From positions 2,294,001-2,358,000 of the forward strand of contig CM026547.1 in the NCBI GenBank assembly GCA_014905635.1: DNA of 64,000 bases, in the 5' to 3' direction. Positions 17,974 through 22,694 of the stretch are shown here, one piece after another. The notes under the pieces were generated by a model. The model was not told the DNA's origin. It made no database searches and worked only from the letters and a program-made list of their open reading frames with translations. This DNA comes from Scenedesmus sp. PABB004 (Eukaryota). The position numbers and the translations under genes are program-made. Numbering within the stretch: the stretch's first letter is position 1; each line of letters opens with the position of its first letter.

Positions 17974-19118
17974 TCACACCGCGACGCGCGGCGGCTGGCC
18001 GCCCGTGACCGCGCTCATCAGGACGAGGGCGGCCAGCAGCAACGCGGCGTCCTCGGAGAGCGCGGCCGCGAGGTCGCGGTATCCCGCGGCCGCCGCCAGC
18101 AGCTCACGCAGGCCCGGCACGAGAGCGGTGACGTCAAAGCCGCGCAGCCGCGGCGGCAGCGCGCCGGCGCCGCCCCCGGCCGCACCGCCCGCAGCGTCTG
18201 CGAGCGCGCGCCGGCCGCGCGACGTGTGGTGCAGCAGCACCAGCGCGCCCGCGAGCAGCGCCGCGCTCGCGACGACCAGCAGCACCGCGGGCGGCGCCGC
18301 GAGCCGCGCGCCCCCGAGCGCCGCATACGCCAGCAGCAGCGCCACGGCCGCGCGCAGCACCGCCGTCTGCCGCACCGCCACGCCCAGGCTGGGGCCGAGC
18401 CGCAGCAGCGCCGCCGCCGCGCCCTGCGCGGCGCCGCCGCCGCTGCCGGCCCCGCCGCCGCGGCGCCGGCCCAGCCCTGGTCGGGCTGCGCGGGCAGGTC
18501 GTCGCCGCCGGGCGGCGCCCAGCCGGCGCCGGGCGCGCTGGCGTCGGCCGCGGCAGCCGCTGCCGCGGCCGTGACCGCCGCGGGGGCGCCGCCCCGCGCG
18601 CGCAGCCCGGCCGCCGACGCCGACGGCGCGGCGTCGCCGCCGCCCGCGGCCACAGCCGCCTGCGCGCGGCGCAGGCTGTCGCCCACTGCTGCCATGAGCG
18701 CCGCGGCGGCGCGCTCCTGCTCCTGCTGCTGCTGCCGCTGCAGCTCTTGCTGCTGCCGCGCCGCGACCGCCGCCAGCTCCCGCTCCTGCTGCTGCTGCTG
18801 CTGCTCCGGCAGCGGCGCCGCGCTTGGCGGCCGCGCCTGCTGCTGCTGTTGCTGCAGCGGTGGCGGCGACGCCGCCGACGCCGGCGGCGGCCCTGCGCAC
18901 GCGGCGGGGGCGCTCGCGTCGGCCGCCGCCGCTGCGCCGGCGCGAGCTCCCCGGCAGCCCGCTGGCGCGTGCCGGCGGCGCTGCCGCGGAATCCACGCAC
19001 CTGTGTCGCCGTCGGGCTGCGCGGGCTCGGCGTAGGGCCCCAGGATGGCGGTCATGCGGTCCGCGCCGCGCGCCAGGATCTTCTGCCGCCGCGCCTCCGC
19101 GCGCGCGCGGGCGTCCAT
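17974..19118 (-). CDS. GET2/CAML-like ER insertase receptor subunit; frame break or intron near 18425-18480
   Basis: N-terminal ARRQKILARGADRMTAILG resembles the basic Get3-binding motif. Low-complexity linker, then three C-terminal hydrophobic segments. Confidence 0.65.
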
Positions 19119-19698
19119 GCTGCTGCGCCTGACCGGTGACCGGTGACCGCGGGGGCGGAAGGGGGGAGGGGCTCGGCGAAGTCCGGGGCGGCGGGGGCGC
19201 CCGGCGTCCCCGCACGCTCGCGGGCGCGGCGGCACAGGTCTCGGCGGCGGCGCGCGGCGCGGCGCATGTATGCAGCGCCGCCGCAGCTCACCCGCAGGCG
19301 CCGTCACCCGCGCACACCCCGCCCCGGCCGCAGGAGCCAGGACCCCGCCAGGCCGCGCGCAGCCTCTCGCAGCAGCGGGCGCCGCTGAAACGCCCTCGAT
19401 CCGCGCGCCGCGCCCTCTGGTTCTGTGCGCGTGACTGCGATCGGGCCGTCGCGCCGGCGATCGGCGCGCCGCGACCGCGGACGGGGCCAGGTGGGCCGGA
19501 GCAGCAAGATGCGCCCGCCGCGTCGCCGCCCGGGCGCAGCGCGGGGCGCCCGCGGGCCCTGGCGCGCCCTGCCGACCGCATGCGCCGCGCTGGCCAGCAG
19601 CAGCAGCCTGGCCCGGCCCGCGCCGCGCCGCGCCGACCGCCGACCGCCGTCGCTGCTGCTGCTGCTCTGCCCGCGCGCAGGCGCCCGCCGCGCAGGCG

Positions 19699-19920
19699 AT
19701 GTCATCCCCGCAGGGCATCTTCAACCGCCACGAGGAGATCCGGCTCGCGCTGCGCTTCTTCCTGCAGGCGCTGCACAAGGCGCAGGCGGCGGGCGCCGCG
19801 ACGCCCGACAAGCGGCGTGTGCTCTTTGACTTTGCGCGCTACAAGGGCCTGCGCCCCGTGGTCGAGCGCCTCGCCACGCCGGGGCTCAGGCCGGACCCGG
19901 CGCCCGCGCCGCGCAAGTGA
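19699..19920 (+). CDS. Uncharacterised 73-aa small ORF directly upstream of ERV1
   Basis: ATG to TGA. 69 of 73 codons end in G/C. Complex sequence (GIFNRHEEIRLALRFFLQALHK..RRVLFDFARYKGLR) unlike local intron or UTR sequence. Confidence 0.65.
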   Translation: MSSPQGIFNRHEEIRLALRFFLQALHKAQAAGAATPDKRRVLFDFARYKGLRPVVERLATPGLRPDPAPAPRK

Positions 19921-19925
19921 GCGCG

Positions 19926-20579
19926 ATGCAGCAGCAGCAGCAGCAGCAGCGCGCGCAGGCGCCGCCGCCGTGGTGGGCCGCCGGCCCGCTCGGCGGCGTC
20001 GGCGCGGCGCTGCAGGGCCTCCAGCGCAGCGCGCAGCGCCTCGCGGACGGCGTGCCACGGCCCGGCGCGGCACGGCCTTCGCCGGCGGCGCCGGCGCCGG
20101 CGTCGCCGCGCCCCGGCGCGCCGGCCGGCGGCGTGGCGGCGCGGGGGCGCGCCGTCGACGCCGCGGCCCTGGCCGCCGGCGCCGGCGCCGGCGCGGCGGC
20201 ACGCGGCGGCGGCGCGCGGCCTGTGACCAAGGAGGAGCTGGGGCGCGCGACGTGGACGTTCCTGCACACGCTGGCGGCGCAGTTCCCCGAGCGCCCCACC
20301 CGGCAGCAGCAGCGCGACGCGCGCGACCTCATCGGCTGCCTCACGCGGCTCTACCCCTGCGCCGACTGCGCGGACCACTTCCAGCGCCTCGTGCGCGCCG
20401 ACCCGCCCGACGTGAGCGGCGGGCCCGCGCTCGCGCTCTGGATGTGCCGCACGCACAACGCCGTCAACCGCCGGCTCGGCAAGGCGCCGTTCAACTGCGA
20501 CCTCGTCGCCGCGCGCTGGGCGCCGATGGACTGCGACGAGCACAACTCCTGCTCCCTGAGCGTCGGGCGCAAGCGCTAG
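19926..20579 (+). CDS. ERV1: FAD-linked sulfhydryl oxidase ERV1/ALR, apparently intronless
   Basis: ELGRATWTFLHT, LYPCADCADHF, WMCRTHNAVNRRLGK..FNC and a C-terminal CDEHNSC pair (plant-type C-terminal shuttle disulfide). Confidence 0.93.
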   Translation: MQQQQQQQRAQAPPPWWAAGPLGGVGAALQGLQRSAQRLADGVPRPGAARPSPAAPAPASPRPGAPAGGVAARGRAVDAAALAAGAGAGAAARGGGARPVTKEELGRATWTFLHTLAAQFPERPTRQQQRDARDLIGCLTRLYPCADCADHFQRLVRADPPDVSGGPALALWMCRTHNAVNRRLGKAPFNCDLVAARWAPMDCDEHNSCSLSVGRKR

Positions 20580-20750
20580 GCGGCGGCGGCGGCGGCGGCC
20601 GGTGAAACACGGCGGCGCGCGTTGCACCCCGCTGCAGCTGCACTGGCGGCCAGCATTCTCCGCAGCGCGTTCACAGCTCGATCACGCTATTCACCAGCAG
20701 CTCGAGCAGCAAGCCTGCCCGCACAGCTGCACGCTGCAAGCGGCGTCGAG

Positions 20751-22694
20751 ATGGCGCGGCCGCTGCTGCTGCTTCTCCCGCTGCTCCTGCCGCTGCTGCT
20801 GCTCGGCACGGGACCCGCCGCTGCGCACGACATCCCGGGCGACTGCGTGGAGGACTGGTTCGATCAGACGCTCGACCACTTCCGCTGGGAGCGCGAGCGC
20901 GGCGCCGCTGCGCCGCGCGCCACCTTCCGGCAGCGCTTCTTCGTCTGCAACGCCACCTACGACGGCCGCGGGCCCATCTTCTTCTACGGTGAGCCCCGGC
21001 ACGCTCGCGGCGCGGCGCTGCGCGCCGGCCGGCGCGCGCCGCCGACCGGCGACTGCCGCCGCCGCCCAGCCGGCAACGAGGGCCCGCTCGAAGGCTACAT
21101 CCGCAACTCGGGATTGATGTTTGAGAACCGTGTGGCGCACGGCGCGCTGGTCGTGTTCGCCGAGGTGCGTGCGCGCTCGCTGAGCCGCGCACGAACTGCG
21201 CCGCCGCGCTGAGCCGCGCACGCGCTGCGCCGCCGCGCGCGCTGAGCCGCGCACGAACTGCGCCGCCGCGCGCGCGCGCTGCGCCGGCCCCGCGCGCAGC
21301 ACCGCTTCTACGGGCAGACGCAGCCGTCTGGCGCCGACTACGCCCTGCTCACCTCTCAGCAGGCGCTCGCCGACTACGCTGCGCTCCTGTGGACGCTCAA
21401 GCGGCGCTGGGGCGTGGCGGGCGCGCCGGTCGTCGCGTTTGGGGGGTCCTACGGCGGCATGCTCGCCGCGTGGCTGCGCCGCCAGTACCCGCACATCGTC
21501 GTGGGCGCCGTGGCCTCGTCGGCCCCCGTCGGCCAGTTCCCGGGCGGGGCGGGGTTTCGCCCGGAGGCGTTCTGGGACGTCGTCACGCGAGACGCGACGC
21601 CCACCGCCGGCGCGGCGCCCGACTGCGCGGCCAACGTGCGCGCGGGCTTTGCCGCGCTCTTCGCGGCGGGCGCGACGCGCGCCGGGCGCGACGCGCTGCG
21701 GCGGGCGTTCCGGCTGTGCGAGGCGCTGACGGGCGAGGCCGACGTCGAGGCGCTCGCGTACTGGGTGCAGGGGGCGTTTGACGCGTACGCCATGGGCAAC
21801 TACCACTTTGCCTCGGACTACATGAGCTCGCCAGGCGCGCCGCTGCCGGCGTGGCCGATGCGCGCCGCGTGCGCGCGCATGAGCCGCCTGCCGCCGGCGC
21901 GCGCCGCGGCGGCGCGCCGCGCGCTGCGGGGCGGCGGCGCGCCCGCGCCCGCGGCCGCGGCCGCCGGCGCCGGCGCCGGCGGCGACGTCGACCTGCTGGT
22001 GCGGCTGCGCCGTGCCGCGGCGCTGCTGTACAACGCGACGGCCGACAAGAGCTGCTTCTCGCTGGAGCTCTCCGGCCCGGCGGCGGGCAACACAGGCGAG
22101 CGGTTGCGAGCGGTGGCGGGGCGGCGGCGGGCGCGCGGGCAGCGGTCTGACGCCGCGGCGGCCCCGCCGCCGCAGGGCCCTGGGACTGGCAGGTGTGCAC
22201 CGAGTTCCTCGGCCAGGAGCTGCCGTATTTCCCGGCCTCACGCCAGAGCATGTTTTGGGACCAGGGACCGTTTGACTGGCCGCGCATCGAGGAGCACTGC
22301 CGCGAGGCGTGGGGCGTCACGCCCAGCCCGCACGCGTCGCTCGTCGCGCACGGCGGTCGCGACTGGAGGTGTGTGGCCGGGGCAGCTGGTGGGGCGCCGC
22401 AGCTGCTACCCCCGCCCGCGCCGGGCCCCCGCAGAGCAGCCGCCGCCGCGCGCGCGCAGGGGCGTCAGCAACGTCGTGTTCAGCAACGGGCTACAAGACC
22501 CTTGGAGCGCCTTCGGCGTGCTCGAGGACGTCAGCGACAGCGTCGTCGCCGTGGTCATCCCCGACGGCGCACACCACAGCGACTTGATGTATTCGCGCCC
22601 CGACGACAGCGAGGCACTCACGGCTGCGCGCGCCACGATCATGCGCCACGTGGCGCGCTGGGTGGCCGCGGCGCGGAGCGTCGCGCCCGCGTGA
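20751..22694 (+). CDS. Serine peptidase S28 (lysosomal Pro-X carboxypeptidase-like), 5 exons
   Basis: Signal peptide, FDQTLDHF, AGNEG, AEHRFYG, GGSYGG (Ser), NGLQDPW (Asp), GAHHSDL (His). Confidence 0.93.
21179..21271 (+). repeat. Intronic minisatellite, about 3 x 29-33 nt (GCTGAGCCGCGCACGAACTGCGCCGCCGC)
   Basis: Three tandem near-identical units in S28 intron 2. Confidence 0.85.

Follow-up and report, generated by a model that had tools for sequence, protein, structure and literature searches.

Green algae have hundreds of nuclear mRNAs that are exclusively polycistronic, and experiments on the start context of the first open reading frame (ORF1) favour leaky scanning as the way in which ribosomes get to the second one (ORF2), at least in those portions of the two main reports that concern us here (Gallaher et al., 2021, PMC7896298; Duenas et al., 2025, PMC11892635). 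According to the same portions, mitochondrial products are frequent among such bicistrons (PMC7896298, PMC11892635), and the median spacing between the ORFs lies at 212-260 nucleotides (nt) (PMC7896298). An example of the class is the TOM22-like/SDHAF3-like pair. Plants and algae also have CDC26-TTM3, a deeply conserved nuclear bicistron with a small ORF1 and a larger ORF2, which enters our comparison through its mention in PMC11892635. Here, we deal with a locus in a stretch of 64,000 nt from Scenedesmus sp. PABB004 (contig CM026547.1, positions 2,294,001 to 2,358,000 of the forward strand; this whole stretch is called the window below, and coordinates refer to it), where an ORF of 73 codons, homologous to the mitoribosomal protein mS113, is directly followed by ERV1, a gene for a sulfhydryl oxidase. 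It is likely, in our view, that in this chlorophycean alga a single nuclear transcription unit carries two separate protein genes, mS113 and ERV1, and the pair is best regarded as a conserved addition to the bicistronic loci already described in green algae.

How does this locus compare with the described ones? Like them, it has a small conserved ORF1 with a conserved ORF2 close behind on the same strand, its colinearity extends to distantly related chlorophytes, its two products are mitochondrial, and ORF1 is free of AUGs after its start. Unlike theirs, its spacers, 1-47 nt long, are far under the published medians. CDC26-TTM3 resembles it as a deeply conserved pair of the same build, but its proteins are unrelated to mS113 and ERV1. 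The general statement on which the original prediction for this locus was founded, that green algae use polycistronic mRNAs with a short first ORF and leaky scanning, agrees with the parts of both papers cited above. As for the pair itself, a text search of the supplements of PMC7896298, where 87 + 173 loci are described from Phytozome and CDD, gave no Erv1, Evr1, ALR, sulfhydryl or PF04777 entry and no ORF1 motif; a single "thiol oxidase" row in them belongs to a different gene. The same terms and motif are absent from the supplements of PMC11892635 including its InterPro table, a negative that rests on the annotation table, Dataset S5; Dataset S1 consists, by its sheet headers, of gene identifiers, measurements and filtering notes. 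Literature searches for ERV1 bicistrons in Chlamydomonas and for mitoribosomal bicistrons in Chlamydomonas or Polytomella found nothing relevant, and one "erv1" match, in PMC11258321, was a digital object identifier string in the reference list.

ORF1 lies on the plus strand at 19699..19920, with a TGA stop at 19918-19920, and is recognized by its homologs, a profile match and its codon bias. After a spacer of 5 nt, GCGCG (19921..19925, plus strand, read from the sequence), ORF2 encodes ERV1 of 217 amino acids (aa) on the same strand (19926..20579), as assigned from the Pfam family Evr1_Alr, an alignment with the solved structure 2hj3 and codon periodicity. The G+C content of the window is 78.9%, and the site of ORF1 and ERV1 also carries overlapping ORFs of 341 and 566 aa that are spurious. 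The length of an open frame therefore proves little here, and coding and non-coding DNA were told apart by the G+C content at each codon position. With 69 of its 73 codons ending in G or C, ORF1 gives 0.74/0.51/0.95 for the three positions, and the ERV1 core gives 0.70/0.54/0.99. The first 35 aa of ERV1, all of whose codons end in G or C, give 0.89/0.57/1.00. The 264 nt 5′ of ORF1 (19435-19698), read in its frame, show 0.83/0.90/0.82, and the values for two introns in the gene that follows are 0.89/0.93/0.85 and 0.89/0.82/0.84. All the ATGs between 19200 and 20100 are those at 19266, 19270, 19509, 19580, 19699 and 19926, so that there is none, in any frame, between the starts of ORF1 and ERV1. 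The ERV1 frame has a stop at 19827-19829, after which the ATG at 19926 is the first in-frame one; the remaining Met codons of ERV1 are residue 173, inside the Pfam domain (107-198), and residue 201, past it. Thus, what the original prediction had read from the letters stands: the 73-aa ORF with its G/C-ending codons, the GCGCG followed by the sole in-frame ATG ahead of the ERV domain, and the ATG-free interval. There are two distinct coding regions, both of them conserved, without room in between.

What is the small protein? A search of 5.8 billion proteins gave 36 candidates, 35 of them homologs of ORF1 with E values from 5e-25 to 1e-12 and local identities of 58-80%, and their alignment has the invariant core RxEEIRLAxR...DxxRYKG. 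The profile of these homologs matched in PDB chain Yh of 8a22 (also 8apn and 8apo), named "mS113", with an E value of 4.7e-22 and 80.8 bits, profile positions 5-65 being aligned with residues 3-63 of the 65 residues of the chain; the PDB matches that follow have E values of at least 0.28. By exact-sequence look-up, chain Yh is mS113 of Polytomella magna, and a pairwise alignment of ORF1 with it has 23 of 56 positions identical (41%, E 3e-17). The family is small: a profile search among 1.84 billion representatives yielded 30 proteins at E <= 1e-3, and the length of 27 of these is 53-145 aa. mS113 is a small, lineage-restricted protein of the small subunit of the mitochondrial ribosome, and from the profile and pairwise alignments we identify ORF1 as its homolog. 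The original prediction had held that the microprotein could not be assigned to a family, a view which these matches overturn. ORF1 has no Pfam family at E <= 1 and no usable match in ESM Atlas. An AlphaFold2 model of it has two helices (residues 5-30 and 38-48) and is of moderate confidence, with a mean predicted local distance difference test score of 70.3 and a predicted template modelling score of 0.38; a Foldseek search with this model against PDB gave nothing with an E value of 0.001 or less, and 8a22 is missing from its 40 weak rows. Such a null result may be taken as uninformative for a two-helix, ribosome-bound peptide. Because Foldseek missed 8a22, the membership of ORF1 in the mS113 family rests on sequence.

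The peptide is also under purifying selection. Among the three closest loci (L001, L002 and L004 of the relatives described below), the ratio of nonsynonymous to synonymous substitution rates (dN/dS) of ORF1 is 0.06-0.13; in more distant pairs it is 0.23-0.85 or saturated, the synonymous rate being depressed there by the shared bias for G or C at third codon positions (GC3). The conservation and dN/dS by which the original prediction had wished to see the peptide tried thus speak for it. The codon-position pattern, the 35 homologs and this dN/dS show that ORF1 is a real coding region. Might it be a mere regulatory upstream ORF of ERV1, whose peptide has no function? The position of ORF1 would fit, but the peptide is strongly conserved with the low dN/dS among the closest loci, and a homolog of it is built into a solved mitoribosome, so that the chance of this explanation is practically negligible.

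The mS113 family is composed of two groups, represented by two alignments: a close group of 35 sequences to which that of the window belongs, and a distant group of 23, including P. magna mS113 and a protein model of Sanguina aurantia. Met occurs in the core of 1 of the 35 close sequences against 9 of the 23 distant ones, and Cys or Trp in 3 of 35 against 22 of 23; in the distant group, a Trp is conserved (SWYKHK) and Met is frequent. Compared with P. magna mS113, ORF1 is similar in length (73 versus 65 aa), can be aligned from end to end, and has the motifs RH.E.R.ALRFFL and D..(K/R)YKG in common, whereas the core of the subfamily in the window is almost throughout without Met, Trp and Cys. 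In the P. magna mitoribosome, 94 proteins were modelled, among them 26 newly identified ones, as stated in the searched text of the report (Tobiasson et al., 2022, PMC9576764); that text, which does not extend to the supplementary protein table, has no discussion of mS113. A whole-word search of literature text for the name mS113 matched 18 papers, of which none concerns ribosomes, and the matching passages of a 2026 preprint on mitoribosome evolution do not name it.

The second ORF encodes a predicted plant-type ERV1, an oxidase linked to flavin adenine dinucleotide. Its residues 107-198 match positions 1-92 of the 93 of Pfam Evr1_Alr (PF04777) with an E value of 4.7e-32, and its closest solved relative is 2hj3, 'Sulfhydryl oxidase Erv1p' (5e-43), which we take to be the Arabidopsis enzyme. 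Like 2hj3, it has the ERV/ALR domain with an active-site CxxC, Cys145-Ala-Asp-Cys148 (20358..20369, plus strand), aligned with that of the structure, and a second Cys pair at the C-terminal and not the N-terminal side, Cys203...Cys209 (20532..20552, plus strand); Cys174/191 are aligned with 2hj3 as the structural pair. It differs from 2hj3 in that the C-terminal pair is Cx5C, one residue longer in spacing, which appears as a one-residue gap in the alignment spanning the pair, and in having a long N-terminal region that is of low complexity and contains a WW motif. This region (aa 1-98) starts with a poly-Q run, (CAG)7, and carries WW and GLQ..Q..A..V.R motifs. The (P/G)WW motif is found in 5 of 6 ERV1 sequences (the window and five relatives), 13-22 residues from the start, and the GLQ..Q..A..V.R motif in those of the window, L005 and L007. 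In L001, L002 and L004, a hydrophobic stretch rich in Ala, Val and Gly comes after WW; in L007, a poly-Q run of much greater length lies farther from the start. The WW/hydrophobic N-terminal region may be a membrane anchor or a sorting signal of algal ERV1. ERV1 works in the mitochondrial intermembrane space, and a protein of a mitoribosomal subunit works in the matrix; the proposal that the two products are partners thus finds no support, as their compartments are different.

To see how far the pair extends, metagenomic or whole-genome shotgun contigs were scanned with the ORF1 alignment, which gave seven loci, L001-L007. L006, which ends 20 nt past the ORF1 match, was left out of the linkage count; L002 is the same as L003 over 921 nt, and L005 and L006 have the same ORF1, and we therefore count five distinct relatives, which together with the window are the six sequences compared below. 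The ORF1 homologs have their own start and stop in L001-L005 and L007, as ORF1 does in the window. In all six testable loci (five distinct ones), ERV1 comes next on the same strand by tblastn, as the original prediction would have it where it asked for linkage to ERV1. The spacers are 11 nt in L001, 16 nt in L002/L003, 1 nt in L004, 22 nt in L005 and 47 nt in L007, and the first ATG in any frame after the ORF1 start opens the ERV1 ORF in every relative. In none of the six distinct sequences does ORF2 share the frame of ORF1, and each of them has the ORF1 stop, which is TGA, TGA, TAA, TAG and TAG in the five relatives. The genes on both sides of the pair in the window, an S28 peptidase downstream and a minus-strand gene upstream, have no match in L001-L007, and the flanks of L002 contain four long ORFs without a Pfam family; of these neighbours, only mS113 and ERV1 stay together across the loci. 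It might be argued that the main source of ERV1 is a monocistronic mRNA starting in or just 5′ of ORF1 and that ORF1 comes from a longer, overlapping transcript, in a genome which does tolerate short gaps, such as the 171 nt from ERV1 to the next gene. However, order and a spacing of 1-47 nt are kept in five other distinct loci while the flanks change, which suggests that the two genes are kept as one unit, and the algal loci in the relevant part of PMC11892635 are exclusively polycistronic. Nested or separate transcripts are accordingly a distinctly improbable alternative.

A different arrangement is given by the public gene model that matches the window, P0042 (726 aa, "DPP7"). Its first 72 residues are 99% identical to ORF1, ERV1 follows from AQRLADG on, and then comes the S28 peptidase. 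A search for longer forms with ORF1 had found three proteins among 429 candidates, P0042 and two that are N-terminally extended ORF1 without ERV1. Since the tblastn comparison of P0042 with the window was swamped by low-complexity matches, four rows were used (19699-20052, 20025-20414, 20718-22097 and 22458-22691). Read against the sequence of the window, the model has intron 1 at about 19917-20029, with the donor GTGAGC overlapping the ORF1 stop, and intron 2 at about 20412-20726. If this were right, one fusion protein would be made through the splice from 19917 to the AG at 20029; a fusion by splicing, with the CGCAG at 19958 as acceptor, was an outcome that the original prediction named as fatal to it. 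Donor and acceptor of the model are consensus-like and were chosen by a gene predictor, and a model of Sanguina, P0073, is fused likewise. But the supposed intron 1 has the full periodicity of the ERV1 frame, 0.89/0.57/1.00, unlike the introns of the next gene, the splice would take out the WW motif, which is conserved, and break up GLQ..Q..A..V.R, and the stops of the relatives vary, the donor not being conserved. For these reasons, intron 1 is implausible. Intron 2 drops ERV1 residues 163-217, that is, Pfam positions 60-93 of the ERV domain, which then covers 59 of 93 positions versus 92 of 93 in the plain ORF, and joins the domain to the S28 peptidase; for this reason the model is unreliable, and P0042 is a chimera that joins ORF1 and the S28 peptidase with a truncated ERV1 between them. 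It is to be noted that P. magna mS113 is a free chain of 65 aa, and that the two extended forms lack the ERV1 part. Although the fusion is predicted by the public model, then, the evidence goes against it and makes it very unlikely. ORF1 and ERV1 are separate, because the ORF1 stop is kept, the two are out of frame, the P. magna protein is a free chain, and WW and GLQ motifs are conserved just past the ERV1 ATG.

The Sanguina aurantia model just mentioned (569 aa), which was found when the distant alignment was used to look for longer forms, begins with an mS113-like part, whose residues 3-67 share 49% identity with P. magna mS113. Residues 442-533 match Evr1_Alr, and their identity to the ERV1 of the window is 64%. 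Between the mS113-like part and ERV1 lie about 370 low-complexity residues, with a PWW motif near residue 156. P0073, known as a fused protein model, is probably another mis-joined bicistron. Sanguina and Polytomella belong to Chlamydomonadales, and the organism of the public model matching the window to Sphaeropleales; as both the Sanguina model and the window have mS113 and then ERV1, this arrangement spans Chlamydomonadales and Sphaeropleales.

Are the two proteins then translated from a single mRNA? From the spacing and its conservation, we infer that the mRNA is probably shared, and we would explain the initiation at ORF2 as follows. A capped mRNA would start in the 580-nt divergent intergenic region upstream, most scanning 40S subunits would initiate at the ORF1 AUG, and a fraction would pass it by leaky scanning, meet no AUG on the way and initiate at the AUG of ERV1. 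The two mitochondrial proteins would thus owe their level to one promoter and their ratio to the start context of ORF1. The proposal of one mRNA for a microprotein and the oxidase accordingly holds as to its layout, which is that of known bicistrons and recurs in five other distinct loci, and fails as to the unassignable nature of the microprotein. In keeping with leaky scanning, G at +4 is present at no ORF1 start and at five ORF2 starts in the six sequences, the contexts being compared between the two ORFs and not with a species consensus.

Several points weigh against this explanation. The start of ORF1 is not clearly weak, as a purine is at -3 in all six sequences, versus four of six for ORF2, and in the window the two contexts are alike, GCGATGC of ORF2 being no stronger than GCGATGT of ORF1. 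GTGAGC over the ORF1 stop was taken as a splice donor by the public model. The next gene begins 171 nt past ERV1, and tight spacing is hence not unique to the pair. ORF1 and spacer together have 0 ATG versus 12.7 expected from base composition over the six sequences, and ORF2 has 17 versus 20.3, but when synonymous codons are resampled with the proteins and the local codon usage unchanged, just 0.41 out-of-frame ATG are expected in total and the probability of finding none is 0.64. Depletion of ATG was for this reason rejected as proof of scanning: the Met-free protein and the GC3 bias account for it, and the ATG-free ORF1 adds nothing independent.

Very short spacers would also suit termination-reinitiation on the same bicistronic mRNA, in which the ribosome would finish ORF1 and its 40S subunit would initiate anew at the AUG that lies 5 nt past the ORF1 stop. 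That the spacers of the six sequences are so far below the algal medians favours this, and the purine at -3 of ORF1 means that leakage may be small. On the other hand, reinitiation past an ORF of 73 codons is generally inefficient in eukaryotes, and the RNA at the ORF1/ORF2 junction is no more structured than its shuffles (z = -0.40); no Rfam family is found in 19000-21000. The two modes are not mutually exclusive according to the relevant part of PMC7896298, but the mutational tests in green algae, in the sections cited, favour leaky scanning (PMC11892635, PMC7896298). We hold reinitiation to be unlikely and prefer leaky scanning.

The non-coding stretch from the divergent minus-strand gene to ORF1 (19119..19698, given on the plus strand) shows no codon periodicity and should hold the promoter and the 5′ leader. 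Upstream ATGs are present in it at 19509 and 19580. The original prediction had proposed an intron that would remove them, and the splice-like motifs in question do exist in the sequence, CCAG|GTGGGC at 19491 and CGCGCAG|G at 19680 and 19695. A start of transcription no more than about 119 nt ahead of ORF1 would make this leader intron dispensable, because no upstream ATG lies in that interval; in the relatives, the nearest upstream ATG is 61-290 nt away from ORF1. The divergent gene itself (18018-19118, minus strand), with an apparent start ATG at 19118 (MDARARAEARRQKILARGADRM...), has the 580-nt intergenic region in common with ORF1 and belongs to no Pfam family.

On the other side, the next gene (20751-22694, plus strand) encodes an S28 serine carboxypeptidase with a signal peptide (Pfam 7.9e-71 on the public model). 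The gap between the ERV1 stop and this gene (20580-20750) is on the same strand and within the spacing of algal polycistrons, which leaves overlapping transcripts, very short untranslated regions or a tricistronic unit as the choices. That a third ORF would be reached by simple leaky scanning is made less likely by the two Met codons in the frame of ERV1. TGTAA, the usual polyadenylation signal of chlorophytes, does not occur in the 171-nt gap, but it is so rare in the whole window, with one on the plus and three on the minus strand in 64 kb, that its absence is uninformative. Polyadenylation sites may use another signal here.

What might have kept the two genes together? It might be imagined that mS113-ERV1 is an ancient operon-like unit, older than the split of Sphaeropleales and Chlamydomonadales, which through one mRNA ties the supply of a mitoribosomal protein to that of the disulfide oxidase of the intermembrane space, and that in the lineage with spacers of 1-47 nt the mS113 core shed Met, Trp and Cys for scanning, or else ERV1 is reached by stop-start reinitiation. 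This picture as a whole is a tentative one, which we would rather doubt than believe, and we know of no green-algal bicistron for which stop-start reinitiation has been shown. It is also to be noted that small intermembrane-space proteins with Cys motifs are the class of substrates of the ERV1 pathway. Several proteins of this kind, COA4-like, COA6, Cmc1-like and a COX copper chaperone, are in the Auxenochlorella list of bicistrons (PMC11892635 Dataset S5). It may be that the ERV1 oxidase and its clients all tend to sit on bicistrons.

By this analysis, an apparent orphan microprotein has received a name and is linked to a mitoribosomal protein known, as far as searched, from one cryo-electron microscopy model, whose family is conserved across chlorophycean algae. 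It should be kept in mind that fused public models hide small first ORFs from comparative studies, and P0042 truncates ERV1 in addition. The spacer of 1-47 nt makes the pair a compact natural test case for leaky scanning versus reinitiation, and the catalogue of green-algal bicistrons gains a deeply conserved mitochondrial pair, which fits the mitochondrial enrichment reported for them.

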